Source of the DNA: Candidatus Latescibacterota bacterium
GTDB taxonomy: Bacteria; Latescibacterota; UBA2968; GCA-2709665
Assembly: GCA_965237675.1 (NCBI GenBank)
Contig: OZ250150.1
Location: forward strand, 1,408,001-1,472,000
Reading direction: 5' to 3'
Length of the DNA: 64,000 nt
The notes beneath the pieces are model-generated. The model saw only the letters and a list, made by a program, of their open reading frames with translations. It ran no database searches and was not told where the DNA came from. Both the position numbers and the translations under genes were made by a program. This document shows, piece after piece, positions 324 through 63,808 of this stretch (positions are counted from its first letter, which is position 1; every line of letters starts with the position of its first letter).

Positions 324-411
324 CCGATAACGTTTTCCGTGCCCCCGAACCGCGAAGCGGTTGCGCGGAGGGCCGAATGGCCCGAAGCCGGGGGCACGGT
401 CGTGTTATGTG
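324..411 (-). mobile_element. attC-like integron recombination site
   Basis: Minus strand ACATAAC...GTTATCG enclosing the stem CCGTGCCCCC/GGGGGCACGG; 328-400 is identical to 4212-4284. Confidence 0.75.
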
Positions 412-529
412 TTGTGCCAGCCGGGGGGCGAGGGCGGCCTTGCCACGGATGGCAAGGCCGCTTTGTCGCTGAAACAGAATTCCCGCTAAATGAATTATTC
501 AGCGGAAATCTTGAAAGAAGAACGAGGGA

Positions 530-700
530 TTATGTCTCCTGTTTCACCGATTCTTCTCTACTTTTCCGCACCAGCTTTTCAGGATGCTCTTTCTGGCGTC
601 TTATGTAATACGCCACCAATTTCTTTGGGTCGTGATCACATTGCTCCGAAATCCTATGACGCACTTCACGAATCCTACGAATGGTCGGATCATCTTTCAT
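530..700 (-). CDS. Putative antitoxin, 56 aa (below ORF-track cutoff)
   Basis: MKDDPTIRRIREVRHRISEQCDHDPKKLVAYY...; start overlaps the end of the PIN gene. Confidence 0.65.
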   Translation of the reverse strand: MKDDPTIRRIREVRHRISEQCDHDPKKLVAYYIRRQKEHPEKLVRKSREESVKQET

Positions 701-1175
701 CTTCAATACCCCCCAGGAGTTCCAGCGGAGTCACCAACGTGGGCACATATAAGCCAAGAATAGTGTTGACTCGCTTGATGTGGGCAAACTTATTCGCGTT
801 AGCCAGATGATTGCAATTCCATGTGAGCAAAAATTCACACTTATGATAAGAGGCTGTAGCAAGATGGAGTGCATCGCCCAGGGGATCATTAGGCATCATC
901 TGGTGTTGGATATATGCTTCTACAATCTCAGCGATTTCTGGTTCAATTGGCAGCAGTGGCAAAGGAGCAACCAGGGCCAATACTCGGTCCTTGTTAGGAT
1001 ACTCTCCTACACTGAGTTCATCGATAACCGCTTCACTGGTGAAAATCTCATAACCCTCACGCCGTTCGTCCCACCATTGGCGTGTCCAAGTCCGCTTTGC
1101 AGCCATCTCGGGTTCTGTACGTGTTTCGTAATAGAAACTGGGAATAGATGTCTCGATGTAGACCTTAGGGATCAT
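690..1175 (-). CDS. PIN-domain (VapC-like) toxin
   Basis: VYIETSIPS, SEAVIDEL, DALHLATA and FLLTWNCNHLAN motifs. Confidence 0.85.
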   Translation of the reverse strand: MIPKVYIETSIPSFYYETRTEPEMAAKRTWTRQWWDERREGYEIFTSEAVIDELSVGEYPNKDRVLALVAPLPLLPIEPEIAEIVEAYIQHQMMPNDPLGDALHLATASYHKCEFLLTWNCNHLANANKFAHIKRVNTILGLYVPTLVTPLELLGGIEDER

Positions 1176-1363
1176 TATATATCATATTGTTTTTAATATG
1201 GTAAAGACGGTTCAATCCTGCTGCGATTGGTCACCTATTGACCTGCTATAAATCTACATATCTTAATCAAGTTCTTCAAGCGAAATTTCCGCTACTGAAG
1301 AACGTAGTGAGATTCTCTTGGGCGGCCAGGACGGCCGCCTGCTTTTGGAGGAAGGCTGGCATT

Positions 1364-1453
1364 GCACATAACGTTCTTGGGCCTTGCGAACCCGCGTCAG
1401 CGGGTTGTGTCGAAGCCCGACAGGGCTGAGCCGCAAGCGGACCTGTTAGCAGC
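1364..1453 (-). mobile_element. attC-like site
   Basis: Minus strand GCTGCTAAC...GTTATGTG, ~90-bp imperfect palindrome between genes; each core matches the far end of the adjacent cassette. Confidence 0.75.
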
Positions 1454-1583
1454 CGGTGCTTCGGAGAAGGCATTCGACTGCCCCTCTACTCCAGGAATTG
1501 ACCTCTGTGCCTTTGTGGTGCGCCTTACGTTCCGCTTCCGGGAAGGACGTTGGCATAACAGCCTGGCCAGGTCGATCATTGAA

Positions 1584-3857
1584 TCAGAACTCGGCGGCAA
1601 TCATCGCGTACTGTCCGATGTTCGTTAATGTGGTTTCCAAGTGGTTTCCGTCGAACGTGACCTCCAGGTCATCTCCCGTGCAAACGTCCCATACGCGACG
1701 AGGAGTGCCCCGCTCCGTGAGCCACCAGCGCAGGTTCACTTCGGGTATCGTGGTCACATAGTCAAACTGTGGGCTGAAGCGCGGCCAGATCTCCGGCAGA
1801 TGCTCGACGCGCTCGCCGGTGTGATTGATCAGAAACAACACTTGGCTTCCTGGTTTTTCATTCGGAATCATCACGAGTTGGTTCGGGCCATCGGTCATCA
1901 GAGGCCGGCCCTCCGGGTAGAGCCAATCCACCACGGCGCCTAGAAGATCGCGGACCACCAGCAGGCGATATTCAAAATGAAGCTCCTCCACCGGCGCGGC
2001 CAGATAGACGACGCGCCCCTTGCCGACCGACCGGCAGGTGACGGCGGGACACAGAGCGTCGTCCGCGCGCCCACCGAAGACGATGTTCGCCACCACGTCG
2101 GTTCCCGGCCGCGCTTGGACGAACTCGAACCGATTGAGCGGCCACAGCTCATGCGAGCACCCCTCGGCCAGCCATTGACCCGGAACGCAGCGACCGTACG
2201 TGTCGAACGTCCCCGCGGCCCAGAGGTGTTGTTCGTAATCAGCGAATTGGTCGGGGTTCGGGTCCACGCGGTCCACGCCCAGAAGGTCCGCCAAGGCGAA
2301 GTTATCGCGCATCTCCTCAGGCTCGGCACCGTACAGGCTCGTCCGGTACGTTGCCAGGAGCCGCCCGCCCACCTTCACATATTCCGTGATGCCCTCGACT
2401 TCCTCCCGCGTGAGATGGCCGACGTTGGGCAGAAACAGAACAGGATACTTTGCCAACGCCGCTGGATCGGAGAGAACCCGCTCCTCGATCACCGATGTCG
2501 GCAAATGGTTGGCCAGCATGGTCGAGAAAGCCCCGCGACGGCAGGATTGCTGCGGGGGCGTGCGCACGAGATAGCCCGCCTCGGAGAGCGGGGCCTCGAG
2601 TTCCCCCGGACGGTCGGCGAGGTCCTGCTTGAACTGGCCGATGACATCGCGCGGACGATCGCGCATCACCAGGGGCTCGGCGCGGAACCGCACCCGCTCG
2701 AGCATCTCATACACCCGCACCGGCAAAACAAATGGAATAGCAACAAACGGTGACGGGTGGAGATCTTCGAAGAGTGATTCATTCGTCTCCAGGATCTCAA
2801 GGAGCTCCGCCAGCTCACGATTGGCTTTGTGGGGAGGCGACAGCCAAAGGTTCACGCCGCACGCCACCAGGACGCCCCCTCCGGAAGCAAAGCTGGCTGC
2901 CGCTTCCTCGACGAGTTCCATGCCGAAGCACTGCGTCCGAGACCAGCCCGTCAAGGCGCCGACGTATTGCCACATAGCCCAACCCGACGACTCGGCCAGA
3001 CTGGCCGCCTCGAGCCGATGAAGGAAGTCGCCCCCGGCCTCGTAGAGAAATCCATTGTGCACCTCCACGATCCTGCGTTCGGGCCAGTTGCCCACACCCA
3101 GGCCGTGCGTCAGCACCGGGATGTCCTTCTTCTTTCGCGTCGCGGCGGCGAATTCGAGAAAGACATCGCCGACGATCCTGCCGTACTGCAGGCTCCACTC
3201 TTCCAGCATCTCCTGGTCTTCCCGAGGCAGGCTGTGCGGATCGGGTGCATACGGCATTGGGCAGCCGAATTGCCTCTCGAACTTCTCGAGGCAATAGTCG
3301 CAGTAGCACAAGGGCGACTGCGGGGTGTGGTGCGAATGGTAAGGACAGGCAGAATCGGTGTAGATCGCGTCGACGTCGTGGTCCACCACTTGTGCGATGA
3401 AAGCGCAGATGGCCTCTCGGTACGGTGTGTTGAAGCAGACGTGCCGGTGAAATCCGCCGCCGTGGTGCCTCAGGACAGGAGCGTCGCCTTCGGGGCTGGG
3501 GCGGTACATCCACTCCGGATGATGGATCAGCATGTTGTCTTCGGGAATAATGTGCCCCACGGGAATGTACCCGATGACGCGCACGTCCCGCGCATGGGCC
3601 TCGGCGATGGTCTCGGCGAGCAGGTCGCGCTCACTTAATTGAGGGTGCGGGGGAAAGAACTCATTGGGGAAGACCGCCCATTTGCCCGCGCTGCCGAACC
3701 AAATGGCGTTGGCGTGGTATTTCCGCACGACATCGACGAGCTGCTTCGCGTCAAAGTCGATGTCGGGCCAGAAGGGCGGGTGGTATTGCTCTATCTGAAA
3801 GGTGCGCGCCCGCCGTACCCACTCGTGACTTGGCTTGATCATAGCGATGACCTCCAA
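1584..3857 (-). CDS. Glycoside hydrolase-like protein (TIM barrel plus beta-galactosidase trimerisation/GATase-like domain)
   Basis: DLLAETIAEAHARDVRVIGY, VCFNTPYRE, CYCDYC, YPVLFLPN, GGRLLAT and GKGRVVYLA motifs; 757 aa. Confidence 0.75.
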   Translation of the reverse strand: MEVIAMIKPSHEWVRRARTFQIEQYHPPFWPDIDFDAKQLVDVVRKYHANAIWFGSAGKWAVFPNEFFPPHPQLSERDLLAETIAEAHARDVRVIGYIPVGHIIPEDNMLIHHPEWMYRPSPEGDAPVLRHHGGGFHRHVCFNTPYREAICAFIAQVVDHDVDAIYTDSACPYHSHHTPQSPLCYCDYCLEKFERQFGCPMPYAPDPHSLPREDQEMLEEWSLQYGRIVGDVFLEFAAATRKKKDIPVLTHGLGVGNWPERRIVEVHNGFLYEAGGDFLHRLEAASLAESSGWAMWQYVGALTGWSRTQCFGMELVEEAAASFASGGGVLVACGVNLWLSPPHKANRELAELLEILETNESLFEDLHPSPFVAIPFVLPVRVYEMLERVRFRAEPLVMRDRPRDVIGQFKQDLADRPGELEAPLSEAGYLVRTPPQQSCRRGAFSTMLANHLPTSVIEERVLSDPAALAKYPVLFLPNVGHLTREEVEGITEYVKVGGRLLATYRTSLYGAEPEEMRDNFALADLLGVDRVDPNPDQFADYEQHLWAAGTFDTYGRCVPGQWLAEGCSHELWPLNRFEFVQARPGTDVVANIVFGGRADDALCPAVTCRSVGKGRVVYLAAPVEELHFEYRLLVVRDLLGAVVDWLYPEGRPLMTDGPNQLVMIPNEKPGSQVLFLINHTGERVEHLPEIWPRFSPQFDYVTTIPEVNLRWWLTERGTPRRVWDVCTGDDLEVTFDGNHLETTLTNIGQYAMIAAEF

Positions 3858-4206
3858 AATCTGTACCGTCTTTTTTTACCCGCAGAGCCCGCGGAGAACG
3901 CAGAGAACGGCCTTCCATGATTCACGGCCGCTCATCATGATCGAGAAGCCGAGAAATATCAGGCTGAACCCCAGCCAGCAGCCCAAGCTCGGCTGTCGGC
4001 ACCAACTCAGGACCCGAGCTAACAGGAGCAACGTCGAGAATGGACGAAGAACGCTTTGGTTGCCGGCGGAAGGTCCGCTCCCACGTTTAACCCGAGGACC
4101 TCAACGACCCTCCCCGCTGTCATGAGAATGGGAAGCAGGAGTGCAGGTAACGCCGCAACCAGAGCAGCACGGAGGTCATTCGCAGTCATTGGTTTCGACT
4201 GGCATG

Positions 4207-4293
4207 GCTGCTAACGTTTTCCGTGCCCCCGAACCGCGAAGCGGTTGCGCGGAGGGCCGAATGGCCCGAAGCCGGGGGCACGGTGTTAGAGGC
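4207..4293 (-). mobile_element. attC-like site
   Basis: Minus strand GCCTCTAAC...GTTAGCAGC; 73 bp identical to the site at 324-411. Confidence 0.8.
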
Positions 4294-4323
4294 TGTGTGG
4301 CAGGGGTGGGGTTGAGTGGTTGC

Positions 4324-4614
4324 TCAAGCGCTTAACGACCGAGCCACGGTTTCTGGGTTTTCCGAAGCAATCTTGAGTAGGGCCCGAGCAGGACCCTCGG
4401 GACGGCGCCGTCCCTGTTCCCAATTTTGCAAAGTAGAGACGCTGACGCCAATCATCAGGGCGAATTCAGATTGCGACTTATCCAGTTTCTTTCGGATCAT
4501 CCTGATATCGGCGGGATCCATCTGGGTCGTGCGCCCTGGCTTCAACTTGCCGCGCTTGATCGCGCCAGCTTGCTTGACGCTGGCTACAAGTTGGTCAAAG
4601 TCACGCTCATTCAT
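4324..4614 (-). CDS. HTH (HigA/NadS-like) antitoxin
   Basis: SQSEFALMIGVSVSTLQNWEQGRRRPEGPARALL; overlaps the toxin stop. Confidence 0.88.
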   Translation of the reverse strand: MNERDFDQLVASVKQAGAIKRGKLKPGRTTQMDPADIRMIRKKLDKSQSEFALMIGVSVSTLQNWEQGRRRPEGPARALLKIASENPETVARSLSA

Positions 4615-4928
4615 GCCAGATACTCCCTTACGAGTTTGCTAAGCAGATTGCACTGTCGAGAGGTGAGATCTTCCTGCCGGCTCTTCCGATACACCCAGAG
4701 CATATAGACAACCTCGGCCGGCTTGTCCCAATAGTAGATCACACGAAGACCGCCCCGTTTGCCAGCGTGCGGCAATTTCCATCTCAGTTTTCGCAATCCA
4801 CCTGTATGCGGAATCAGCTCTCCTGATTCTGGCCGGAATAGGAGCGCCAGCTGTATTGCCCGGTAGTCCTCATCCGATAGTAGGGTCAAGATCTCCTTTG
4901 TGAAGATTGGCGTCTCGACGAAGATCAT
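4611..4928 (-). CDS. RelE/HigB-family toxin
   Basis: MIFVETPIF, TGGLRKLRW and GKRGGLRVIYY motifs; start taken at ATG 4928. Confidence 0.88.
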   Translation of the reverse strand: MIFVETPIFTKEILTLLSDEDYRAIQLALLFRPESGELIPHTGGLRKLRWKLPHAGKRGGLRVIYYWDKPAEVVYMLWVYRKSRQEDLTSRQCNLLSKLVREYLA

Positions 4929-4934
4929 ACGCAC

Positions 4935-4963
4935 AATATACGCCAATGACGTATAGCACGCAA
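4935..4963 (-). promoter_or_regulatory. Sigma70-like promoter with palindromic operator for the TA operon
   Basis: TTGCGT-17 bp-TATATT, with palindrome TATACG-N7-CGTATA (4937-4955); -10 box lies 6 nt before the ATG. Confidence 0.6.
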
Positions 4964-4986
4964 GGTCTTTACTTTGGCCACATGGC

Positions 4987-5056
4987 CTCTAACTACGGTA
5001 TTACCGAACAGTTACGGTAACGCGTACCTAATGCGAAGATCTGCGAACATTCGGGA
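4987..5056 (-). repeat. attI-like motif, copy 1
   Basis: Top strand TAACTACGGTATTACCGAACAGTTACGGTAA; GTT core on the minus strand directly before a cassette; related copies at 7542, 10006, 14970. Confidence 0.5.
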
Positions 5057-5374
5057 ACATGTTGCTTCGAAGCGTGTAGTCCGAACATGCTCAGGAATGC
5101 ATCCTATAGTCTTCACGATTGTACCAGAGTCTGATCTCGCGCTTAATTTCCCTGCAGCATATATATGAGGGTTTGTTGCCCTCGTTGGAAGAATTAAGTC
5201 GCGGTCGCGAGATATGTAGAAACGTGGGCGTATGAATTATACCTGCAAAGGAAGGCGACGGCAAGAGCGTGGGCGACTTCAGATCCACAAACTCATATGA
5301 TGTCGGCCGCAGAGCCGCTCCCTGAGCCGTCGAGCAGCAGCAGGCACGCCGTGCAGGTTGAAGTCATCGCAAAT

Positions 5375-6517: not shown

Positions 6518-6565
6518 GTGGATTTTTCACTGGCCATGTGGTCTGGCGTCTTGCCGCGCCTCAGC

Positions 6566-6635
6566 CGCGAATGCAGATGGGCGAAGGGGGTCTGCCCGAA
6601 GGCACATCCCGTCGGGTCGCTCGCCTGTGTTGGTC
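6566..6635 (-). mobile_element. Degenerate attC-like site
   Basis: Minus strand GACCAAC...ATTCGCG with imperfect arms and an internal hairpin, between two cassette-type genes. Confidence 0.3.
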
Positions 6636-6692
6636 TCCGCAACTGAAAACGCGCTGCGCAGTCAACGGGACGTGGCTCGTTCCGCCGTATGA

Positions 6693-7538: not shown

Positions 7539-7600
7539 GCGTAACTTTGGTTTTGCCAAACAGGGACGGAAATACGGACCGGACCGGAAAACGCCCGAAC
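7539..7600 (-). repeat. attI-like motif, diverged copy 2
   Basis: TAACTTTGGTTTTGCCAAACAGGGACGGAAATACGGACCGGACCGGAAA aligns without gaps to the 14970 copy. Confidence 0.4.
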
Positions 7601-7630
7601 GCTCGCGACAGGTCACTCCTGGCCCGATCA

Positions 7631-7867: not shown

Positions 7868-7971
7868 ATTCGACCCTCCTGGAATCCTGATTCAAGGCTC
7901 ACTGCTCAAATCAATATATCCTCTTCCATTGGGAAAATACAGAAAAGATATCTGTTTCATCCCAGCCGATG

Positions 7972-8032
7972 TCATTTAACGTTCTCCGGTTTGCGAACCC
8001 AGAGCTCGGCCGCGGAGCCTACGCGCTGAGCC
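7972..8032 (-). mobile_element. Truncated attC-like site
   Basis: Shares GGCTCAGC...GGGTTCGCAA...AGAACGTTA with the attC at 1364-1453; the R'' arm is replaced by the end of the ankyrin gene. Confidence 0.45.
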
Positions 8033-9782
8033 GTTCCTGATTTTGCGATCTGGCACCTGCTTGCCGAAGCATCTCGGCGATTTCCATATGCCCACGTTTT
8101 TCAGCCCAGGCTAAAGGCGTTGCCCATTTCGGTGTGTTGGAAATATTCGCGGAAGCCCCACGTTCAAGCAAAAAAGCAACCACATCTTTGTGGCCCGCGC
8201 GGACATGCCAGCCCAGTGGCGTCGAACACAGTTCGTCATCTTGAACATTCAAATCAGCCATATAATCGAGCAACAATTCTGCCATCTCAATCATCACGGC
8301 TTCACTATTGTTCCATACTTCCTCACGTTCATGATAGCTTCCCCCGATCCAATGCAATAAGGTTGAGTTTTCCGGCCCCCGGATGTTAACATCAACACCA
8401 TAATCCAAAATCATCCGTACGGTTTCTCCGGCGCCGCTTTGCAGCCCCCAGCGTAAACACTCAAACCAATAATCCGCATCAAAATCGGGTTCACAGCGCA
8501 AGCACATTCTTACGACATTGACATCTTCAAAGCTCAATCCCGAACGCATGGTTTGTCGAACCACGCCTTCACTACGATCCTGTGGCAAATAGCCGGCTTC
8601 CCGAACAGCCGTGGCACGATCCAGTAACTCACCTATCACGCAATATTGTCTTGCCTTCACGTATGTCCACATCATCGGGTGCCCACCATTTACATAGATG
8701 CGATCCGCCAAACCCTGGTTGCCAGACAGCAACGCCTCGTCAGCTACGCCCAATTCCGAATCATTCGCGGGTGCATCCGTGCGCGCACCGCGATCCATTA
8801 ACCGTTCGGCCACATCAAAGTGTTTGCGTTCCAGTGCATAAATCAATGCACCGCAAATATGGACCACCTTACCACTGCGTTCACATTTTGTATCCACGTC
8901 GGCTCCAAAATCCAAGAGCAAATCTACGACCTCCAAATGCCCCTCGCGCGCCGCCATCGCCAGGGGATAGGTCGATGCATTTTTGTTATTCGCACGCCCG
9001 CACTGATAATTCACCAGACTGGCGTCCGCTTCCAGCATCTTCTTGACACCTTCCAGATCACCAAGAGCACTGGCTACCCAGATGTCGTAATTTGCCCCAT
9101 GTTCAAGCAACAATTCAGCCATCTTTCGATACGCCGGCTTATCACGGTTGGGGTCGTTGCCTTTAAATAGAGCGCGGTGGATGGGTAATTCATTTTCGGC
9201 GTTCTTGATATTCACATCAGCGCCAGCGGTGAGCAAGTCGGTCACAAGTTTAAACTGCATATGCCACACCGCATAATGAAGGGCTGTATTGCCGGCTGTA
9301 TCGCATTCGTTTATGATTGCCGGTTCCTTTTCCAATATGAAGCGCACTTTCTCAAGCTCCTGCATCCGGGCCGCATCACAGAATTCCACCCCACGAGATG
9401 TTGTCCCATGTTGTGTGTTCAACCACGCGTCAATTAAAGCGACGACCTCCGTATGCCCTCGGTCCCGTGCCAATGTCAACGGTTGCGACGCCTCCCGGTT
9501 AGGCCAAATCCCAACGGTCGGACCGGCGCCCGCTTCGAGCAGTATCTTCACTACCTCTGCATGACCTTCCCGAGCGGCATAGTGAATGGGGCGTCGTCTG
9601 TGTTGCTGATGGTTTTTGGCAGTTGCCAAATCCGGATTCTTCTTCAACAGCATCTTTACCCTTTCCACGTCTCCCGCTTGCGCAGCGTGGCATATTCTGA
9701 TAGCATCTGCAAACACATCGTCTCTTGAAGGGGCTTCATTTCTAAAAGTCTTCTTTGCCATTATTGGAAACCGTTCATTCAA
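8019..9782 (-). CDS. Ankyrin-repeat protein
   Basis: Multiple PIHYAAREGH, TALHYA, PLAMAAREGH and TPLAWA repeats; lower GC than the catabolic cluster; start may be 9761. Confidence 0.92.
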   Translation of the reverse strand: MNERFPIMAKKTFRNEAPSRDDVFADAIRICHAAQAGDVERVKMLLKKNPDLATAKNHQQHRRRPIHYAAREGHAEVVKILLEAGAGPTVGIWPNREASQPLTLARDRGHTEVVALIDAWLNTQHGTTSRGVEFCDAARMQELEKVRFILEKEPAIINECDTAGNTALHYAVWHMQFKLVTDLLTAGADVNIKNAENELPIHRALFKGNDPNRDKPAYRKMAELLLEHGANYDIWVASALGDLEGVKKMLEADASLVNYQCGRANNKNASTYPLAMAAREGHLEVVDLLLDFGADVDTKCERSGKVVHICGALIYALERKHFDVAERLMDRGARTDAPANDSELGVADEALLSGNQGLADRIYVNGGHPMMWTYVKARQYCVIGELLDRATAVREAGYLPQDRSEGVVRQTMRSGLSFEDVNVVRMCLRCEPDFDADYWFECLRWGLQSGAGETVRMILDYGVDVNIRGPENSTLLHWIGGSYHEREEVWNNSEAVMIEMAELLLDYMADLNVQDDELCSTPLGWHVRAGHKDVVAFLLERGASANISNTPKWATPLAWAEKRGHMEIAEMLRQAGARSQNQERLSA

Positions 9783-10002: not shown

Positions 10003-10072
10003 GTGTAACTACGGTATTACCGACAGGTTACGGTAAAACGCATCAGGTCCGAACATCTCCCAACGTTTGGAA
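10003..10072 (-). repeat. attI-like motif, copy 3
   Basis: TAACTACGGTATTACCGACAGGTTACGGTAA; similarity to copy 1 extends ~65 bp. Confidence 0.5.
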
Positions 10073-10253
10073 TGGTCAGAATGCGCACCCCTTCTGTCAT
10101 AATAATGTGCTTACCCTGGCGTGCAATGTGAAAACCGGCTTTCTCCAATGCACGTACGGAATCCAAACCTGCCATATCGGACACCTCGTCTAGTTTTTCG
10201 GAGAGCGTCGCGCTAACAAATAACCACGGCAGTTCTCGGAAAACCGCTCGCCA

Positions 10254-10440
10254 GTGTTCTGTCCCGGAAATTGGTTGCCAAAATTCGGCCGATCAGAAGC
10301 AGCAATAACAGCTATCAGCTCTCAGCCGTCAGCTTGAACCAAAAACCCAATCAGTTGACATCAGCGCCGTGAAGAGACGAGACCAGAACGGGCGCCGCGA
10401 GACGGGATGAATCGGCGGCCGAATGGTGAGATATTTTCGG
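10254..10440. mobile_element. MITE (family A), damaged copy with an internal heptamer-repeat segment
   Basis: AGTGTTCTGTCCCGGAAAT and GCCGCGAGACGGGATGAATCGGCGG shared with 28303-28471; CAGCTAT-CAGCTCT-CAGCCGT at 10310-10334. Confidence 0.65.
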
Positions 10441-11286
10441 CTAATTGGCCACGAAGTGCCGGTAGAGCGGTTTCACTTCCTCCGGAAGCCCCTCGTACAC
10501 GTCGCGGCGCAGGGGCTCCATCTCGTAGTTCTTCCCGCCGGTCTCCACCACCATCATTTCGTGCTCCGGCGTGCCTACGTGCGTCGGATTCAGGTTCAGC
10601 CACCAGGGAGCGTAGCGCACGATCAGGGCCACCCGGGGGCTGCCGCTCCGGTTGGGGGCAACCGCGTGCCACTGCCGGCTGTCGTAGAGCAGCACCGAAC
10701 CCGCCCTGCCCTCGGTGTTGATCTCGGCCGGCTGGGGTGCCTCGTTGTCGAAGCCGGGGAGGTCTCCCGTCGCCGGATTGTGGTCCTTCCGGTGCGTGCC
10801 CGGCAACAGCAGCGTCCCTCCGTTGGAGGCGGAGAAATCGGTCAGCATCCACAGCGACGACGCGTGCATCATCACGTCCGGGTAGGGGGCGGCGACATTG
10901 GAGGCGTTCGTCTGGTTGAACGGCCAGTCCGCGTGCCAGTAGCCGCGCTCGTTCCCCGGGTGGTTCACCACGGCGTCGGTGCAGGAGATCCGCAGCCAGG
11001 GACCGAAGAAGATCTCGAGGGCCCCGACGATCCGCCGGTCGGCCAGGTACGGCGCGAACGACTGGTCGTGGTTGACCGCCTGCTTGAGCACGCGGACGCC
11101 GCGGGCTCCGACGCGGTGGCCCCTGGCTCGAGTCGCCCTTTCCCTGGCCTGGTTGGCGGCGTCGTTGGCGGCGTGCGCCCGCACGACGCGCTCGCGGATC
11201 CTGCCCACTTCCCCTGAGGGGATGACGTCCTCGACGATGCAGTAGCCGTTTTCCCTGATATGGTGCGCTATTTCAGCTGGTTCCAT
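10441..11286 (-). CDS. Phytanoyl-CoA dioxygenase (PhyH) family
   Basis: WHADW, NGGTLLLPGTH and WHAVAPN Fe(II)/2OG motifs. Confidence 0.9.
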   Translation of the reverse strand: MEPAEIAHHIRENGYCIVEDVIPSGEVGRIRERVVRAHAANDAANQARERATRARGHRVGARGVRVLKQAVNHDQSFAPYLADRRIVGALEIFFGPWLRISCTDAVVNHPGNERGYWHADWPFNQTNASNVAAPYPDVMMHASSLWMLTDFSASNGGTLLLPGTHRKDHNPATGDLPGFDNEAPQPAEINTEGRAGSVLLYDSRQWHAVAPNRSGSPRVALIVRYAPWWLNLNPTHVGTPEHEMMVVETGGKNYEMEPLRRDVYEGLPEEVKPLYRHFVAN

Positions 11287-11433
11287 GTCGTTGTCCTTTG
11301 CCCAGGTGCCGGTTCGGTTGTCCGGACCGGAAGGAATGGCAGGGAGCATTTCCCTGGCAAGGTGGATGGTCCAGGGTGACCGTCATCGGTACTTCCCGGA
11401 TCGCCTTGGTCCACCTGCATATGTACTAATGTA

Positions 11434-13339: not shown

Positions 13340-13566
13340 GGGGCTACTCCTGCCTGTTGTCTGCAGATCGCTCTCGCTGTCTTGCCCATTGTGTCTCTGC
13401 GTCTTTGTGTGAGCCGGCTTTTTCGTGACGACGCGAGGCCCGGGGGTCTCCCCTGCGAAATCCAGGCATCCGCGAATTGATATCGCAAGGCCATATCGAT
13501 GTCCGGCGGGGTGCGGCGTGGTCCTCTTCCCTCTCCCGTTTACCTTCTCACTGCTTCTTGTGCTAC

Positions 13567-13797
13567 CCCTACGCGCCTTTTTCGTGTCGGCCGAGAAGGT
13601 GCTGGGCGATGAATCGCTGGCTGTAGACGACGGGACCCACGTATCGGACCTGGACGGAGTTGTTCCGCGACCCGCAATGCCAGATCTGGTTGTGGAACAT
13701 GTAGACGTCGCCCGGTTTCGCGACCAGGGATACCGGCTGCCGGCCTTCAAAGGTCGGAATCTTGCGGTCGTTCGGGTTTCTGCCGGCGTAGTGGCAA
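13567..13797 (-). pseudogene. PhyH 3' fragment, paralog of 15095-15919, internally deleted
   Basis: Strong nucleotide similarity to ~15100-15395 with ~69 bp missing. Confidence 0.8.
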
Positions 13798-13822: not shown

Positions 13823-13996
13823 TCAGCCCGTGCTCGTGTCTATTGATGGTTCCTTATGATCATCCGGTTTTTGTCCCGATCTTTCTTCAATATACTCAAT
13901 TTGTTGTTGAGGAGTCATCCCTTGCATCTCTTCGCTCATTTGATCACGAAGAGTCCGCATGAGTTGAACCGCATTAGTCTGCTGTTTCGTCTTCAT
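13823..13996 (-). CDS. Putative antitoxin, 57 aa
   Basis: MKTKQQTNAVQLMRTLRDQMSEEMQGMT...; GGAGG RBS; follows a PIN remnant. Confidence 0.55.
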   Translation of the reverse strand: MKTKQQTNAVQLMRTLRDQMSEEMQGMTPQQQIEYIEERSGQKPDDHKEPSIDTSTG

Positions 13997-14147
13997 AATA
14001 CACCTCCTGAGGAGAGCGAATCTCCAAGGGGTGGGTGTCTTAAAAGGGCTTGCACGGCATCCGGGGCCTGGCGCAGTTCAGCAAGGGTAACGTCCGATAG
14101 TACGGCTGTCAATCGACCCGCTTGAAAGTCGGCAAAAAGACGTCCAG
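13990..14147 (-). pseudogene. PIN toxin remnant
   Basis: SGRLFADFQAGRLTAVLSDVTLAELRQAPDAVQALL joined out of frame to PLEIRSPQEV. Confidence 0.55.
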
Positions 14148-14205: not shown

Positions 14206-14334
14206 GAAGTCACAGTCTTGGGCGGTTGAGCTGCTTTTCATATTCGACTTGAACTATTCGGCAAATTACTGTAGTTTTTTTCAATCAATGAATAATTCTG
14301 ACAGTGGCTGGTGTTTGCCATAGGAGATTTATGG

Positions 14335-14619
14335 ATGCTTAAAATCTCGTCTGCAAAAGCATTACCTGATTATAAGATTTGGATTCAATACTCAGATGGC
14401 GTTGAGGGTGAAGTAGATTTATCCCATCTTGTTGGCAATGGTGTATTCTCCGCTTGGAAAGATGCAAATGTGTTTCAGGCTTTCCGGGTTGAAAACGGCA
14501 GATCTATTACTTGGACAGACGAAATCGATCTGTGTGCAGATTCGCTCTATTTGGAGATGACAGGAAAAGCTCCCGAGGATATTTTCCCTGCGTTGAGGAT
14601 GGAAGATGTGAATGCCTGA
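14335..14619 (+). CDS. DUF2442-family protein
   Basis: YKIWIQYSDGVEGEVDLS and ITWTDEIDLCADSLY motifs. Confidence 0.85.
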   Translation: MLKISSAKALPDYKIWIQYSDGVEGEVDLSHLVGNGVFSAWKDANVFQAFRVENGRSITWTDEIDLCADSLYLEMTGKAPEDIFPALRMEDVNA

Positions 14620-14872
14620 GATATGTCGGTTTTATGGAATTATTATCAAGATGTACGTGAATGATCATCCACCCCCGCATTTCCATGCGGAATACGCAGA
14701 ATATGCGGCTGTGATCAATATTGGGACATTGGCCGTCATCGCAGGAAATCTCCCTTCACGGGCGCTGGGTTTGACAGTCGAATGGGCATCGTTACACCAA
14801 GACGAAATGAGAAATCTATGGGAGCGAGCACGAAATCATGAATCCTTGGGCAAATTAGATCCTCTGCAATAG
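14612..14872 (+). CDS. DUF4160-family protein
   Basis: MPEICRFYGIIIKMY and DHPPPHFHAEY motifs. Confidence 0.9.
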   Translation: MPEICRFYGIIIKMYVNDHPPPHFHAEYAEYAAVINIGTLAVIAGNLPSRALGLTVEWASLHQDEMRNLWERARNHESLGKLDPLQ

Positions 14873-14966: not shown

Positions 14967-15032
14967 GCTTAACTACGGTATTAACGAACAGGTACGGCAA
15001 TACGGACCGGAACGGAAATTCCCGATCAGTCG
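14967..15032 (-). repeat. attI-like motif, copy 4
   Basis: TAACTACGGTATTAACGAACAGGTACGGCAA abutting the DUF2442/DUF4160 cassette end. Confidence 0.5.
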
Positions 15033-15094
15033 GCATGTTGAATTACGCCGACCAGTGAAAGCGTTGGCAGGAGCCCGGGCGACTCAAAGTGCGC

Positions 15095-15919
15095 TTAACC
15101 GTACGCGCCCTTTTCGTGTCGGCCCAGGAGGCGCTGAAGGCGGGGTCTGGCGTCTTCCCAGACGTGGTCGGGCATGCGGTAGTCGATGAACGGATAGAGG
15201 CGCTGGGCGATCATCCGCTGGCTGTAGACAATGGAACCCACGTACCGGACCTGGTCGGAGTTGTTTCGGGACCCGCGGTGCCAGACCTGGTTGTGGAACA
15301 TGTAGACATCGCCCGGTTTCGCGACAAGGGACACCGGCTCTCGGCCTTCGAAGGTCGGATTTTCGCGGTCGTTCGGGTTTCTGCCGGCGAAGTGGCTGCC
15401 CGGAATGACCTGGGTGACGCCGTATTCGATGGAATCGGCCCTGCTGAGCGGGATCATCACGTTGATCACGAAACAGGGGATGGGGATATCCGGATTGTGG
15501 CGCGGGACGCCATCGGGAAGCGGGAACTGGATCTTATCGTCCAGGTGCCACCCGCCGCCCTGGCCGGGTTCGTAACGCAGGGCGTTCTGAGACATCATGT
15601 GGCAATCTTCGCCCAGGATGGCCTCCGCCAGGCTGACGATGGGCTCGCGTTCGATAAGGTCCCGGTAGTTGCGGTCATACTCGTACATGCGCATCATGCT
15701 GATTCCGCGGATGTGATCGCCCGCTTCGTCCGCCTGAATCCGGGGGTCGTTCCACTTGCGTTCCATGCCGTCCCTGAGCGCGTCCACTTCCTCGGGGGTG
15801 AGCACGTTTTCCAGGAAACAATAGCCGTCCCGGTTGAACTGTTCCACGATCTTCCGGGTGGTTTCTTCGTCGAGGGCCTGCGCGTTTTTTTCGATAACGC
15901 TGCTGTCTCGGGTATGCAT
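15095..15919 (-). CDS. PhyH-family dioxygenase
   Basis: FNRDGYC, WHLDD, TQVIPGSH and VWHRG motifs. Confidence 0.9.
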   Translation of the reverse strand: MHTRDSSVIEKNAQALDEETTRKIVEQFNRDGYCFLENVLTPEEVDALRDGMERKWNDPRIQADEAGDHIRGISMMRMYEYDRNYRDLIEREPIVSLAEAILGEDCHMMSQNALRYEPGQGGGWHLDDKIQFPLPDGVPRHNPDIPIPCFVINVMIPLSRADSIEYGVTQVIPGSHFAGRNPNDRENPTFEGREPVSLVAKPGDVYMFHNQVWHRGSRNNSDQVRYVGSIVYSQRMIAQRLYPFIDYRMPDHVWEDARPRLQRLLGRHEKGAYG

Positions 15920-16141
15920 CGGGATCTCCTCAATTGTGTGGTCTGGCAAAAAATATAGGGATCTGCCGGTGAGGAGACAATTGATTTGAAGGGAGGCGCA
16001 CAACGCCATTTTTCTTTGACTTCCGGGGGAAACTGTGCCATCATGCCATCGTTGCCGCCCGTCGCGGGGTCGGAGTGCTGAATGAACGGCATTCGCCGTA
16101 GATCCGCGACGCTTGCGTCCACATTCTATATGGAGGAATCC

Positions 16142-26436: not shown

Positions 26437-28301
26437 CTCTAATTAAGCGGGTTTTTTGAGATTTTTATGTACAAAAGTACCGGAAAGACTTATCTTTGTT
26501 GAAGATAGCAGTATCCGACGAGAAATTGCTACTCCAACGAAGGAGGCCTTTCCGGTGAAAAGAATATCGGTAAAAGAAAGCCGCAGGAACAGTGTTAATT
26601 GTGGGCGCAAGGTACGTGCTCGGCATCAGCTTGGCGGTCGTTTTTGTGCGCAAGGCAAGCCAATGTTTGGCAGCACCTATGTGCATTACGAGGTCAGCGC
26701 CCAGCCGGAAGGGATGAGTTACGGTGGCATAGCGGCCGTGCATCGTCTGGTGACGAAGTTGGGCTTGGTCGAAGGCATCGACGCGACGTTGAAGTTGCTG
26801 AAGGTGCATCTGCCGTATCATGAGTCGGATCACGTGTTGAACCTTGCCTACAACGTGATGTGCGGCGGCACGCGTCTGGAAGACATCGAGCGTTTGCGGC
26901 ATGACGGGGCCTACATGAATGCCTTGAGCGCGAAGCTGATCCCGGACCCGACGACTGCGGGCGACTTTACGCGTCGCTTCACGGAAGCGGACGTGATCGG
27001 GCTGATGGACTGCATTAACGCGGTACGGTCTAAGTTGTGGCGCACGCGGGCTGCCAGTTTGCTTTCTCCGGTGGCGTACATCGACGTGGATGGCACAAGC
27101 GCCCCAACGTATGGGGAGAAGAAGGGCGGCATGGACATCTCCTACAAGGGCGTGTGGGGGTATGCGCCCCTGATCGTATCGTTGGCCAATACCAAAGAGG
27201 TGCTGTATATCGTCAACCGTCCGGGCAACGCGTCTTCTCACCAGGGGGCCGCCCCCTGGATCGATGCGTCCATCCGGGTGGTGAAGCCCCACGCGGGGCG
27301 CGTGTGCCTACGCGGCGACACGGACTTTTCGCTTACGGCTCACCTCGATCGCTGGGCGAAGGACGTCGATTTCATCTTCGGGATGGACTGCAATGACGCC
27401 TTACGAACACGCGCCGAGGCCCTTGACGAAGCCAACTGGCAGCGCCTGCACCGACCTGTAGCACCCCAGAAAAGGCGGCGGCGCGACAATGAGAAGCAGC
27501 GTATCGTCAAGGCGCGGGGCTACCTCAAGCTGGCGCTGAACTTCGAAGACGTGGCTGAGTTTGACTATCAGCCCGGCAAGTGCGAACGGTCCTACCGCGT
27601 TGTGGCGCTGCGAAAAAACATCAGTAAGGCCAAAGGTGAGCAGACCCTCTTCGACGAAATCCGCTATTTCTTCTACATCACCACGCGCGACGACCTGACC
27701 CCCGCCGAGGTCGTCTTTGCTGCCAACAAACGATGCGACCAGGAAAACGTCATCGAACAGCTCAAGAACGGCGTCAATGCCCTGCGCGTGCCCTTGTATG
27801 ACTTGATCAGCAACTGGGCCTACATGGTCATCGCCGCGCTGGCCTGGAACATCAAGTCGTGGTTTGCCTTGATGATGCATCGAAAAAACCATCGCCGACA
27901 CTATATCCGTATGGACTTTCGGACCTTCCTCTCACACATCATCCTTTTTCCCTGTCGTGTCGTGAGACACGCACGAAGCACCACCGTGCGCATCATCGGC
28001 TATCAGCCGTCACTGAATAGACTCTTGAGCGCCTGGGCCACCATCGAACGCACCGGCTTCACCTGACACCGGTACGGACCGTGACCATAGACCACCAGAC
28101 CCACGACGCCTACCGCGACGCAACGGACAAATACGCCCACCCCACAAATAATGGGTCGCTTTACGACTCATACATACACGCAACAAACCGCAGAACGACC
28201 TCCCGTCGACCCCATTAGGCGGCACCGATACTTCTATCAACCAAACCGCAACACAAATTGGCCTTTCTGTTCAGCAAACAACAATACTCGCTTATTTAAG
28301 G
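26437..28301 (+). mobile_element. IS1380-family insertion sequence
   Basis: Imperfect IRs CTCTAATTAAGCG / CGCTTATTTAAGG, flanked by direct repeats CCTAGT at 26431-26436 and 28302-28307. Confidence 0.8.
26456..28066 (+). CDS. IS1380-family DDE transposase (true start probably downstream)
   Basis: PDPTTAGDF, IDVDGT, LRGDTDFS and RCDQENVIEQLK motifs. Confidence 0.9.
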   Translation: MRFLCTKVPERLIFVEDSSIRREIATPTKEAFPVKRISVKESRRNSVNCGRKVRARHQLGGRFCAQGKPMFGSTYVHYEVSAQPEGMSYGGIAAVHRLVTKLGLVEGIDATLKLLKVHLPYHESDHVLNLAYNVMCGGTRLEDIERLRHDGAYMNALSAKLIPDPTTAGDFTRRFTEADVIGLMDCINAVRSKLWRTRAASLLSPVAYIDVDGTSAPTYGEKKGGMDISYKGVWGYAPLIVSLANTKEVLYIVNRPGNASSHQGAAPWIDASIRVVKPHAGRVCLRGDTDFSLTAHLDRWAKDVDFIFGMDCNDALRTRAEALDEANWQRLHRPVAPQKRRRRDNEKQRIVKARGYLKLALNFEDVAEFDYQPGKCERSYRVVALRKNISKAKGEQTLFDEIRYFFYITTRDDLTPAEVVFAANKRCDQENVIEQLKNGVNALRVPLYDLISNWAYMVIAALAWNIKSWFALMMHRKNHRRHYIRMDFRTFLSHIILFPCRVVRHARSTTVRIIGYQPSLNRLLSAWATIERTGFT

Positions 28302-28302
28302 C

Positions 28303-28471
28303 CTAGTGTTCTGTCCCGGAAATAAGTTGCCAAAATTCGGCCGTCGAGTCGCCCGTCTCGCAAGACGCCTGAACGCAGGCGACCTGCGTAAGTTCGGCGA
28401 GCGAAGGCAACGCCGCGAGACGGGATGAATCGGCGGGAGAATGGTGAGGTATTTTTGGGACAGGACACTAG
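28303..28471. mobile_element. MITE (family A), full copy
   Basis: TIRs CTAGTGTTCTGTCCCGGAAATA / TATTTTTGGGACAGGACACTAG. Confidence 0.8.
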
Positions 28472-32605: not shown

Positions 32606-33388
32606 CTATTTTTCCTCTCCGATAGCAACAAGAATCTCGCGGCCGTTCAGCGCCTGTACCGGCCGGTTATTTTTGTGAACAATTGCTTCGAATGCGGCAA
32701 TCTGCGCCTCTGAGATTTCAATGGGCGTTGCCAGCACGAACCACCTGACCCCCTCAGAGCAGGGTGGGGTCGTCAGGGAACCTTCGTATCGATAGGCGCG
32801 CCCGTCCCGCGGAAGCCAATCGCCGGGGTTAACGGAGACACCTTCGATGCGTTTCATTTCGCCCGGCGCGCGCGGCAAATGCTCCGACACAAGATTGAAT
32901 GCGACGTGGTGGCTTCCCCGCTCGATCAGCACACCAATTACGTGCAACGCGCCGTCCTCGTTTCGGTGAACGAGGTGCATCTCCATGTCAAATGACTTGC
33001 CGTCCATCGTATGTTCGGATGGCGCATGGAAATGGCACTGTAGCAGGTTGTATTTATTACCGGCAATCTCGATCCAGTTCTCCCCGGTGAATGCCATTTT
33101 TATGGTGTGGCCGTTATTGCGGATATTCAGGGCCGTTGGCTGGTAGTTGAAGACGATGGCAGGAAGTCTTGCCGGCGTCGGGTTCCGGAGGTCAATGGGG
33201 GATTGGCCCGACCCTTCGGCGCAAAGCGCATATTTCCGGCTCAGCCGGCCCCAGGAGTCCGGTCCGTTCTCGGCATCGTACCCCCACGCAACCTTATCCA
33301 ATCAGGATGGCGAATCCTCCGGCTCTGAACAGGCAATCATCAAAATACACACTATACACATCAAGATGGTAGGTTTGATAACTGTCAT
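32606..33388 (-). pseudogene. Alpha-carbonic anhydrase lipoprotein with in-frame TGA at 33302-33304
   Basis: QSPID, NNGHT, QCHFHAPSEH, EMHLVH and YEGSLTTPPCSEGV motifs; signal peptide (LMIAC) is in frame upstream of the stop. Confidence 0.85.
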
Positions 33389-36632: not shown

Positions 36633-37268
36633 TCAGTCGAGACGGAGCGCGCCATGCGTCCCGGTTTTTTTATCCATGCGCCTTGCACAGAAGTATCCCC
36701 CGGTGCGCAATGATCGCAGGCCGCTGCGCCAACTCCCGGCGAAACCGCCTCTGTAGATCGCATGTACTTCTAGCACGGTAAAGGCCCCGTCGAAGAGCAT
36801 TGAATCCCGCCGATTGGCGTCCGCGCCGAGGCGCAGCAGGATGCGGCGCTTGCCGTCGTGGAGGCTTTCAAGAACGAGCACGCCAGGGGCCTCCGGATCC
36901 GTGCTGGCGGGATCACCGACCCGGTGCGCGCCCACGGCGCGGAGGTCGACGTCGGTAAAACCGTACAGAGGAGTCGACGCTGTTTTCAGCATCTCGAATC
37001 CCGGAGGCTGGCGGCGCAGGTTGAGAACGCCCTGTGCCCGACGAGCGTCGGCACCGTCGACCACCTGTATAAGGGTAAGGATATAGGTACCTTCCCGGCC
37101 GGCCAACGTCGCTCGGGCATTCAGGCGCCTGGAGGCGGGTTTGCAGAAAGGCGTCTGCGCCGCCGATTCAGAGAGTGCCTGTTTCCGCGGCCGCTCCACG
37201 GACAGGCACACGGTAAACAGAGCCAGAATGGCCATTGGTACGACTACAGTCCTGTTCAGTCTTGTCAT
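36633..37268 (-). CDS. Hypothetical secreted/membrane-anchored protein
   Basis: N-terminal hydrophobic stretch; start overlaps the stop of the giant gene (ATGA). Confidence 0.6.
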   Translation of the reverse strand: MTRLNRTVVVPMAILALFTVCLSVERPRKQALSESAAQTPFCKPASRRLNARATLAGREGTYILTLIQVVDGADARRAQGVLNLRRQPPGFEMLKTASTPLYGFTDVDLRAVGAHRVGDPASTDPEAPGVLVLESLHDGKRRILLRLGADANRRDSMLFDGAFTVLEVHAIYRGGFAGSWRSGLRSLRTGGYFCARRMDKKTGTHGALRLD

Positions 37269-46429: not shown

Positions 46430-47444
46430 TGTGGCAATTCGTACGTGAATTAGAAATGAAGTCAACCGCGATCGGAGATCAACCCAGGAGTGAAGGACTG
46501 GCAATCGCGGCTTTCTCGCCTCGTAGTCGACCCCGTGCGGCCGGCTGGATGCTTCAACGTCGGGCGGGCGCCTGATGGACTTCGTTACGATTCAGTCGGC
46601 AACCCAACCGTTTTCGAACTCTGTTGAATCATCCACAAACCATTTTGTCCGACCATTCCGTCGAGCCCTGACTCAGGACCACAATACGATACACGCGCGA
46701 ACTGTGTCCGTCAGCGGCTTCCCGTCGTCACCCATCCCATATGTAGCAAAATACGACATTTGGGCAATATTGCAAAATTCCACCATTGACTTATTACGAT
46801 CCTTCCTATAACTATATTAAAAAATGTATAGTTGCAGGATTTCTTCCACATGCGCTTTTTCTCCGTACCGGGTTTGCATGTTGCAACCCGGTCTTGATCT
46901 CCGAGAACTCCACAGGGCTCCCACATTGTGCCCTGCCCGTTCATCATGAACGAGTTGGCCCGCTCATTTCAAGAGTTGGACCGAATTTCCATATAGGAAG
47001 ACCCTATATGGTCTCACCAGACGCGCTTCATTTTACCCGGTACTCCATAAGCCGTTTCGGGGCCGGAAATTACCTTCGCAGCACGCATACCCGTGGGCGA
47101 CGGGGAGATTTTTTTGGGCGGTAATTGTCGACACCCGGATATGGAACGCGATGAATCGCATGCGCATTTAAATTCACCCGGGAAATTGCCGTTTTTTTTT
47201 TTGGAAAAGAAATCCAGATATGCCCTTGTGTACATGCGAAATGGACTTATATTCTATATTAAGCATAAGCAGGTCGGCTCATTCGAACGCTGAAGCCGGG
47301 AGGTTCGTTGTTTAGTTCGTGATCTTCATTATATATATGTTAACGAGTCAGGGGCCAATTGGGACGGGCGCGTTTTTTGCGCGCGTTGCTTACAGCTTTC
47401 TGGCTCTTTTTCGCTGGCAATCCACAACATTGGGAGGGTTCGCT

Positions 47445-62580: not shown

Positions 62581-62930
62581 CCGGAGGACCACCAGAGCAG
62601 AGCGCGCTATTCCGTTCATCTCGGAGATCGGGTACCCGCCCTCGCTGGTAGGGCAACGGGTTGTGTGCATCCTGTGAGGGTGTTCGCGCTGTGCATAAGT
62701 ACGGCCCCGCGCCCAGCGGCGACTTTTGGTTACATAATGCGGTAAGAAGAAAGAGGCAAGAAGGGAGAGGGGTTGGTAACTTTGTCATATGACACCCTCG
62801 GAGCCGGACTTTCGCTAAAGGGAATACAGAAGTGGATCGCGAAAGAGGGCGCGTAACCGGTGGGTGGCTGAGTGGCCTTCTTACCTCTACCGTCTTACGT
62901 CTCACGGTTTTAAGGAACCCTCCGGAGGCA
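62581..62930. repeat. 350-bp direct repeat, copy 1
   Basis: Identical by eye to 63459-63808. Confidence 0.92.
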
Positions 62931-63458: not shown

Positions 63459-63808
63459 CCGGAGGACCACCAGAGCAGAGCGCGCTATTCCGTTCATCTC
63501 GGAGATCGGGTACCCGCCCTCGCTGGTAGGGCAACGGGTTGTGTGCATCCTGTGAGGGTGTTCGCGCTGTGCATAAGTACGGCCCCGCGCCCAGCGGCGA
63601 CTTTTGGTTACATAATGCGGTAAGAAGAAAGAGGCAAGAAGGGAGAGGGGTTGGTAACTTTGTCATATGACACCCTCGGAGCCGGACTTTCGCTAAAGGG
63701 AATACAGAAGTGGATCGCGAAAGAGGGCGCGTAACCGGTGGGTGGCTGAGTGGCCTTCTTACCTCTACCGTCTTACGTCTCACGGTTTTAAGGAACCCTC
63801 CGGAGGCA
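63459..63808. repeat. 350-bp direct repeat, copy 2
   Basis: Offset 878 bp from copy 1. Confidence 0.92.

Follow-up and report, generated by a model that had tools for sequence, protein, structure and literature searches.

Arrays of attC sites that stand apart from an integrase have a name of their own. In Cury et al. 2016, a cluster of attC sites lacking integron-integrases (CALIN) is defined as at least two attC sites with no integron integrase nearby (4 kb), and that paper reports no complete integron in Firmicutes, although CALINs are present there. Archaeal integron integrases are reported, in a 2022 paper, to carry the additional domain of IntI. Here we describe a cassette array in a 64,000-nt stretch of DNA (the window) from a Candidatus Latescibacterota genome (assembly GCA_965237675.1, contig OZ250150.1, positions 1,408,001 to 1,472,000 of the forward strand). 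From position 1 to about 5110, the window probably holds the end nearest attI of an integron-like array of cassettes in the chromosome, and arrays of this type occur mainly in Candidatus Latescibacterota. We are similarly confident that the array is formally CALIN-like, as a recombinase-less platform of a non-canonical integron lineage.

The array resembles sedentary chromosomal integrons and CALINs in its co-oriented, mostly promoterless open reading frames (ORFs), its AAC/GTT palindromes with matched ends, the similarity of attC sites within the lineage and its toxin-antitoxin cargo. It is unlike a CALIN in having an attI-type site at its head and further attI-type copies inside, and the recombinases of its relatives lack the IntI-specific region. 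An earlier note on this DNA, made from the letters alone, had called it an integron-like, CALIN-type array. Integron-type cassettes with attC-like sites are borne out by fold, matched ends and family covariation. The CALIN label applies formally, with three full attC sites by our family model and no recombinase, but does not account for the attI-type site at the head. In a limited literature collection we found no paper on Latescibacterota integrons or on arrays served by recombinases without the additional domain.

For comparison we used 77 related loci that match a degenerate pattern fitted to both types of attC in the window. Each locus is an attC-pattern match with 10 kb on either side (L-numbers below), and together they hold about 1.5 Mb of flanking DNA.

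attC-like sites and their cassettes

Three imperfect palindromes of the form TAAC...GTTA lie at 328-407, 1369-1448 and 4212-4288, delimiting segments as the earlier note had said. In a wider frame, C-NNN-TAAC ... GTTA-NNN-G, they are the attC-like sites 324-411, 1365-1452 and 4208-4292, all assigned to the minus strand; at the first, C-NNN-TAAC occupies 324-331 and GTTA-NNN-G 404-411 as read on the plus strand. Folded as single plus strands and compared with shuffled sequence, the three sites give z of -4.3, -2.0 and -5.8. A hidden Markov model (HMM) of the family, which was built in this analysis and is not the attC covariance model of IntegronFinder, finds them with E of 2.9e-16, 1.9e-12 and 1.6e-13; its only other match in the window is a half site at 7969-8002.

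The outer two sites, which we call type A (repeat family D13), are 96% identical over 81 nt. Their stems are perfect 11-bp duplexes with no extrahelical bases, and they take ranks 1 and 2 in energy per base among the 1,407 window segments bounded by AAC and GTT. The middle site, type B, has the same three-way architecture, and its stem changes are compensatory. The window sites have what is expected of attC: the inverse core AAC and the core GTT, a spacer that stays unpaired, L boxes that pair and a centre that varies. By itself, TAAC-N45-75-GTTA occurs in the window no more often than expected (6 seen, 6.4 expected), so the signal rests in the fold and the matched ends. No further strong hairpin emerged from seven additional intergenic segments in the range 5.3-14.2 kb, one of which overlaps an ORF in part (z -1.24 to +1.54). 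Across the 64 kb there is no tRNA gene, and no Rfam family reaches its gathering score.

The ends of the segments carry more information. In the PIN segment, GTTATGTG at 404-411 pairs with CACATAAC at 1365-1372; in the hydrolase segment, GTTAGCAGCC at 1445-1454 pairs with GGCTGCTAAC at 4206-4215; and in the RelE/HTH segment, GTTAGAGGC at 4285-4293 pairs with GCCTCTAAC at 4985-4993. The observation that each segment opens with the complement of its own end is therefore confirmed for all three. Beyond the common GTTA/TAAC, 4, 6 and 5 bases match, or 15 over three consecutive segments. This is the gene-cassette rule, by which the start of a cassette complements the inverse core of its own attC, and it holds for 3 of 3 cassettes here. 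The NNN of the attC complements the NNN at the cassette start, an arrangement such as insertion of a circular cassette by one crossover at G/TT (the slash marks the crossover) would leave. Family-wide, the NNN complement is perfect in 132 of 199 adjacent attC-attC pairs and in 8 of 11 pairs of an attC with r (our name for a non-hairpin repeat with a TAAC crossover edge, described below), compared with 232 of 4,979 random pairings (4.7%). The attC-r junction of the window is among the 8.

The matched-end rule is symmetric between the strands and so does not give the orientation of the array. From other evidence, we read the array on the minus strand, with each attC 3' of its own ORF and owned by the cassette on its right in plus-strand coordinates. 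The cargo ORFs without exception use the minus strand. In L024 the PIN cassette keeps the attC at 324-411 (about 90% identity, with compensating indels in both stem arms), and the other flanking attC there is a different family member. Of 243 family copies, 188 fold more stably as the plus strand (mean difference -1.41 kcal/mol), which is the strand expected to be recombined if the genes are read from the minus strand. In relatives, the recombinase gene lies on the GTTA side of the array in 12 of 12 distinct loci with genes of at least 700 bp, and so the head of the array lies to the right in the window.

Read in this direction, cassette 1 (4992 to 4215, 778 bp) is the first after the attI-type site. 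It holds a RelE-like protein of 111 aa (4611-4946), a helix-turn-helix (HTH) protein of 96 aa (4324-4614) and the attC at 4208-4292. Cassette 2 (4214 to 1372, 2,843 bp), with matched ends of 10 nt, holds a 757-aa protein (1584-3857) and the type B attC. Cassette 3 (1371 to 331, 1,041 bp), also with matched ends, holds a 161-aa PIN-domain protein (690-1175), a 58-aa ORF (530-706) that overlaps the end of the PIN gene and is a possible partner, and the attC at 324-411. A further minus-strand cassette begins at the crossover of that attC (1-330); its ORF at 2-175 leaves the window on the left.

The earlier note had named the cargo as a PIN and antitoxin pair, a glycoside hydrolase and a RelE/HTH pair. 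The hydrolase is supported by matches to GHL6 (E 7.9e-18) and Glyco_hydro_42M (E 2.3e-9). PIN is supported (PF01850, E 9.5e-7), but the antitoxin label is not, as the 58-aa ORF matches no Pfam family up to E 0.05. In the last pair, the HTH protein matches HTH_3 (PF01381, E 4.9e-11) and the MqsA-type antitoxin family PF15731 (33.3 bits, above cutoff), but RelE is a weak match only (PF06296, E 2.1e-4, 21.9 bits, under the 27-bit cutoff).

Homologous cassettes at 95-97% identity occur in other contexts. L024 and L022 carry the PIN cassette in a different neighbourhood, with 95% identity over 1,152 aligned bases. The glycoside hydrolase cassette is 97% identical to a copy in L033 and 96% to one in L046, and the homology with L046 stops at ...GCTAAC/GTT, the crossover, after which a different attC follows. 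L033 and L022 lie on one chromosome record and start about 32 kb apart; the hydrolase and PIN cassettes that they carry are adjacent in the window.

The attC family is broad. Among the 77 loci, 63 are titled Latescibacterota or Latescibacteria. Three others are titled Poribacteria, and there are two each from Gemmatimonadota/Gemmatimonadetes, Chlorobiota and Paenibacillus camelliae and five singletons, some probably chance matches. None of the 77 holds an attC identical to one of the window's own sites, and the collection does not include the genome of the window. The family HMM gives 512 matches in 76 sources, of which 367 are full-length and 243 distinct, with up to 16 sites within 20 kb in one array (L045). 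In a 76-sequence alignment the frame C-NNN-TAAC ... GTTA-NNN-G is nearly invariant, with AAC and GTT invariant or nearly so, and one inner-hairpin pair shows 23 double changes from CG to UA. Most members have one extra A in the 3' arm and an asymmetric spacer of 5 nt opposite 1-4 nt. A Watson-Crick run of at least 7 joins a copy's own arms in 96 of 214 copies, compared with 334 of 4,255 swapped arm pairs; the covariation of the outer stem rests on this arm-swap control.

The attI-type site and the extent of the array

The boundary at 4985-4993 (GCCTCTAAC) is, judged by position, a junction with an attI-type site and not an attC, and the end of the array appears as a decapitated platform. The site is r at 4990-5110 on the minus strand, a non-hairpin element (repeat family D14) that starts at the crossover TAAC/ and whose core is 95% identical to a copy in L022. 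Three more minus-strand copies lie in the window: 7542-7620, with no recombinase (E 5.4e-21, family D12), 10006-10085 (E 1.4e-22, D14) and 14970-15044 (E 3.5e-22, D12), the last at the right-hand limit of the cassette-like region. A profile of these four copies matches 13 further loci, 11 after the overlapping pairs L010/L011 and L018/L033 are merged, all titled Latescibacterota or Latescibacteria.

In four of these loci (L002, L013, L057 and L059), r immediately follows the 3' end of a tyrosine recombinase gene whose direction is toward the cassettes. What r is homologous to, in related Candidatus Latescibacterota genomes, is thus the DNA that separates the stop codon of the recombinase from cassette number one. 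Of what is expected of attI (non-palindromic, adjacent to the integrase, ending at G/TT where the first cassette begins), r agrees by position only. The left edge common to all copies is the TAAC crossover, and the extension toward the recombinase varies. It runs into full-length genes in L002, L013 and L057 and into remnants of 577 bp (L018/L033), 507 bp (L059), about 335 bp (L022/L024; 333 bp in L022) and 129 bp (a second copy in L013). No remnant stands beside the four copies in the window or those in L008, L028, L034, L049 and L010/L011. In L013 and L002, 130-146 nt separate the stop codon from the crossover, and so the window copy at 4990-5110 retains only non-coding DNA of the attI region, about 120 nt, and none of the gene. 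A 24-residue tblastn match of the L057 frame to 5110-5039 was considered as a coding remnant and dropped, as this stretch is non-coding attI region in L013 and L002; the extension of the reading frame in L057 is probably a read-through frame.

The four copies in the window are 58-75% identical to each other over a 62-column core, so they are not recent local duplicates. Across 18 copies, the mean majority fraction is 0.81 in the 62 columns on the crossover side, compared with 0.48 on the cassette side and 0.62 on the former gene side, and this conservation of the core above its flanks fits selection on the site itself. Two other identities for r were rejected. It is not a second class of attC, as the four copies fold no better than shuffles on either strand tested (z -0.16 to -0.75). 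Nor does it look in general like a miniature inverted-repeat transposable element that duplicates its target: the copy at 14970 has the 7-nt repeat GCTTAAC on its flanks, but no such duplication was seen at the other three.

One record, CBDDDZ010000005.1, holds three r copies: that of L002 adjoins 1,288 bp of recombinase region, that of L024 a remnant of about 337 bp and that of L034 none. It is therefore plausible that sites without a gene are served in trans.

The array had been described as an intact array of three cassettes, and this did not hold up. A fourth cassette starts at 330 and leaves the window on the left, and cassette-like DNA with degenerate attC sites extends right to about 15.1 kb. 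The DNA between 5.1 and 15.1 kb may comprise several older arrays in decay. Its cargo includes methyltransferases, a GNAT protein, an ankyrin protein, PhyH paralogues and HicB-type ORFs. Most of these genes use the minus strand; a DUF2442/DUF4160 pair (14311-14872) and an 89-aa ORF that matches no family (13856-14125) use the plus strand. The half attC at 7969-8002 (minus strand, family-model positions 1-35, E 4.2e-4) is overlapped by the 3' end of the ankyrin ORF. Another site at about 6540-6640, between the GNAT and methyltransferase genes, is probably a decayed attC; it was recognized by eye and by a match to L067/L063, and the HMM finds none there at E 0.01 or better.

Several genes of this region can be noted in their own right. 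A 587-aa ankyrin-repeat protein (8019-9782, Ank_2 E 1e-45) stands amid the cassette-like genes. PhyH-family dioxygenase genes lie at 10441-11349 and 15095-16009, and a PhyH 3' fragment at 13564-13795, inside the cassette-like region, is 88% identical over 199 nt to 15198-15396. The homology of the two PhyH copies stops at a TAAC-type boundary.

Recombinases in related loci

There is no tyrosine recombinase in the window, as the earlier note had observed. None of the 60 ORFs scanned with Pfam matches PF00589, no IntI1-like ORF was found in the six frames of the 64 kb (stop-to-stop frames of at least 100 aa), and tblastn with 13 recombinases from related loci finds only the 24-residue stretch at 5110-5039. 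IntegronFinder defines a complete integron by a tyrosine recombinase that matches PF00589 as well as the IntI-specific region near patch III and lies within 4 kb of attC, and the window holds no such combination.

In the related loci, IntI1 of plasmid R100 (NC_002134) finds 13 distinct proteins, with E of 1e-13 to 1e-51, and one weak fragment. The integron integrase model TIGR02249 gives the 12 full or near-full genes 179-241 bits (E 1e-52 to 1e-71), all under its 265-bit cutoff, in two pieces that skip profile positions of about 179-235; the fragment in L059 scores 72 bits in one piece. TIGR02249 beats XerC and XerD in 12 of 12 of the full or near-full proteins and is the best or second-best NCBIfam model, with NF040815 ("XerA / integron integrase") at a comparable score and an unbroken alignment. 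The nearest solved structure is the Vibrio integron integrase VchIntIA (IntI4), 2a3v (E 1e-41), in which 67 residues stand opposite 25 in our proteins; archaeal XerA structures align without a break. The missing segment corresponds to the position of the IntI-specific additional domain.

The class 1 integron of R100 makes the comparison concrete. Nine aligned proteins are 33-40% identical to IntI1 over the catalytic and core-binding domains, and the RKHRH-Y set is kept (R146, K171, H277, R280, H303 and Y312 are invariant). However, the 31+10-residue insertion of IntI1 is absent in 9 of 9, and the intI1 gene is transcribed away from its cassettes. The recombinases that accompany these attC sites resemble IntI most and lack its specific additional domain. 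That the cassettes were IntI-integrated, as had been claimed, is not shown, since the recombinases that adjoin the family in relatives lack the domain that defines IntI.

In the frame of the array, the gene has the same direction as the cassettes in 8 of 12 loci and points away in 4. In the integrons of the 2022 paper, the gene is co-directed with the cassettes, as in these 8, but the archaeal integrases there carry the additional domain and these do not. As a further likeness, the attI-type site of the r-type platforms lies 130-146 nt downstream of the recombinase stop codon. The repeat r was found only with the L013/L057/L002 subtype of recombinase.

One locus, from the cultured Firmicute Paenibacillus camelliae TA 29 (L012, 380-5130), holds a whole integron-like unit. 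Its recombinase gene, which lacks the additional domain, is directed at an attI-like junction followed by five cassettes with ends matched over 9-10 nt. The attC-like sites of this unit are about 128-150 nt long. The recombinases of the r type (L013, 213-1340) and of L012 also have an N-terminal extension of about 90 residues before the SAM-like domain. Pfam gives no confident match for the extension, which might serve as an additional module that binds the ACGGTA-type words repeated in r.

Other features were seen elsewhere in the window. A bipartite repeat at 10250-10440 and 28301-28458, and at 13583-13725 of L028, consists of two conserved blocks, about 43 and 48 nt long and 92-95% identical, with a variable part between them, and has no Rfam match. 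We considered whether it was the end of an insertion sequence that truncated a recombinase gene and found no support for this, as it forms no convincing terminal inverted repeat with the other side of the transposase. Two DDE_Tnp_1_4 transposase genes lie at 26456-28066 and 58288-59652, and a eukaryotic-type carbonic anhydrase at 32606-33301. The region 37265-46504 holds a 2,202-aa ORF with 72-nt tandem repeats (seven phased copies at 40244-40891 and one at 40016), adjoined by an 866-aa cadherin/FN3 protein; further internal repeats of about 590 nt lie at 42866-44269. Near the right end of the window is a 300-nt perfect direct repeat (62581-62880 and 63459-63758, 878 nt apart).

How the array may work and what else could explain it

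We read the array as follows. On the minus strand, the order is the attI-type site (5110 to 4990), the crossover G/TT, the RelE/HTH cassette, the hydrolase cassette, the PIN cassette and the further cassette that leaves the window. Each cassette consists of an ORF or a toxin-antitoxin pair followed by an imperfect palindrome of about 85 nt, with C-NNN-TAAC, GTTYT, a stem, two small hairpins, the other arm of the stem, (A)CGT and GTTA-NNN-G in succession. We propose that the plus strand of the attC folds to give an R duplex of 8 bp (C-NNN-TAAC with GTTA-NNN-G) and an L duplex, with GTTYT and the 1-4 nt opposite it left unpaired as a spacer between them. An IntI-like recombinase of Xer size, without the additional domain, would then exchange one strand at G/TT with the double-stranded r, and replication would resolve the product, as in classical integrons.

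This mechanism has a likeness in the XerCD/CTX-phi system, as described in Escudero et al. 2016, where a Xer-sized recombinase without an I2-like domain acts on a folded hairpin with a stem that largely mimics duplex DNA; the same is proposed for our array. The two differ in that CTX-phi hijacks the host XerCD and integrates at dif, whereas in the relatives of our array a dedicated recombinase gene stands beside its own attI-type site and array. We also considered Xer/dif-type (pdif-like) modules and rejected them: the sites are hairpins of about 85 nt in one orientation and not alternating dif-like sites of about 28 bp.

With the recombinase gene absent here and about 120 nt of the attI region kept, the array would be either served in trans, by a copy of the gene elsewhere in the genome, or recently orphaned. 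We hold these two to be about evenly balanced, with some preference for service in trans. A wider form of the proposal is that there is a separate integron lineage whose IntI-like recombinase either lost the additional domain or was always without it. In this lineage attI-type sites would persist as docking points served in trans, several per array, and the window would hold four of them. Its carriers would be Latescibacterota, at least one cultured Paenibacillus, and metagenome-assembled genomes titled Poribacteria, Gemmatimonadota and Chlorobiota. We put this forward tentatively, a little short of an even chance.

Several points weigh against the explanation that we favor. We infer the cognate recombinase from relatives only, and a recombinase without the additional domain would have to process folded attC sites. 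In related genomes, a canonical IntI could lie outside the 10 kb covered on each side of a match. Messier & Roy 2001, going by its title as cited elsewhere, reports the additional domain to be necessary for the activity of IntI, and Cury et al. 2016 state that recombinases near attC sites but without the domain "are not IntI". The recombinase family is also very large (6,250 proteins at E 1e-30 or better among 8,000 scored), and its members carry only generic source names such as "XerD" or "site-specific tyrosine recombinase/integron integrase", so membership alone does not imply cassette recombination. Several of the related loci are metagenome-assembled genomes, and some of the recombinase genes that appear truncated there may be assembly errors. 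The hydrolase cassette in L033 is without an attC at its 3' side, and the start of the PIN cassette in L024 matches its own attC over GTTAT only (five bases). Finally, RNAalifold on the 76-sequence MAFFT alignment recovers a 3-pair inner hairpin only and not the outer stem, because indels misalign the outer stem.

The strongest alternative is that the array was built in the same way but is now frozen, with no working recombinase in the genome, and that its toxin-antitoxin cassettes do no more than keep it stable. Nothing of the recombinase gene is left in the window, the cassette-like DNA on the right holds decayed or half attC sites, and two of the three cassettes are counted as toxin-antitoxin pairs. 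The closest relative, record OZ244744.1, shows only remnants of 577 bp and 333 bp in the four of its loci that were covered. However, the three attC sites are intact, two of them almost identical, and the attI core stays close to that of a relative. The higher conservation of the r core than of its flanks and the recurrence of the same cassettes in other contexts and other genomes also count against a frozen array. We regard this alternative as rather doubtful, but serious enough to keep beside the array as we read it.

A classical CALIN seems unlikely. Under this explanation, a canonical IntI, elsewhere or lost, moves the cassettes, and the recombinases without the domain are bystanders. The AAC and GTT cores, the unpaired spacer and the matched ends are as in classical attC sites, and only 10 kb on each side of a match was covered in the relatives. 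Within that DNA around the 77 loci, however, there is no canonical IntI, and every IntI1-like match lacks the insertion. The repeat r abuts recombinase genes in four independent records, its junction follows the cassette rule in most pairs, and the recombinase is at the start side of the array in every one of the 12 loci.

The weakest explanation, that the palindromes are intergenic repeats (repetitive extragenic palindromes or MITE-like elements) or terminators with coincidentally matched ends, would suit GC-rich hairpins that follow ORFs and a bare motif no commoner than chance, but it is refuted, within the limits of sequence analysis, by the 15 extra matched bases, the rule in adjacent pairs as compared with random ones, the movement of cassettes as units with breaks at the crossover and the linkage of the sites to tyrosine recombinase genes, and we give it hardly any credence.

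For annotation of this locus, the array as we favor it is larger than in the first reading, has the opposite orientation and ends in an attI-type site and not an attC. The wider question concerns the definition of an integron. IntI is defined, in the literature and in standard software, by the additional domain that is reported necessary for activity, and here 12 distinct recombinase genes without that domain lie at the start side of attC arrays, and the attI-type junction beside them is conserved and follows the cassette rule. Should these enzymes carry out the recombination, the additional domain is not universally required for cassette capture, and many of the "CALINs" in poorly studied phyla, as well as the reported lack of complete integrons in Firmicutes, may partly reflect how the integron is defined. 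If they form a separate lineage, current tools would score every such array as a CALIN. Supplementary Figure S1 of Cury et al. 2016 shows 21 recombinases without the specific domain near attC sites, and this set may include relatives of the Latescibacterota family. Paenibacillus camelliae TA 29 is an isolate record with the full arrangement, so the idea can be taken to the bench. If it is true, these arrays would be a natural system between Xer-type and IntI-type recombination and would bear on the origin of integrons, a subject taken up in Escudero et al. 2016.

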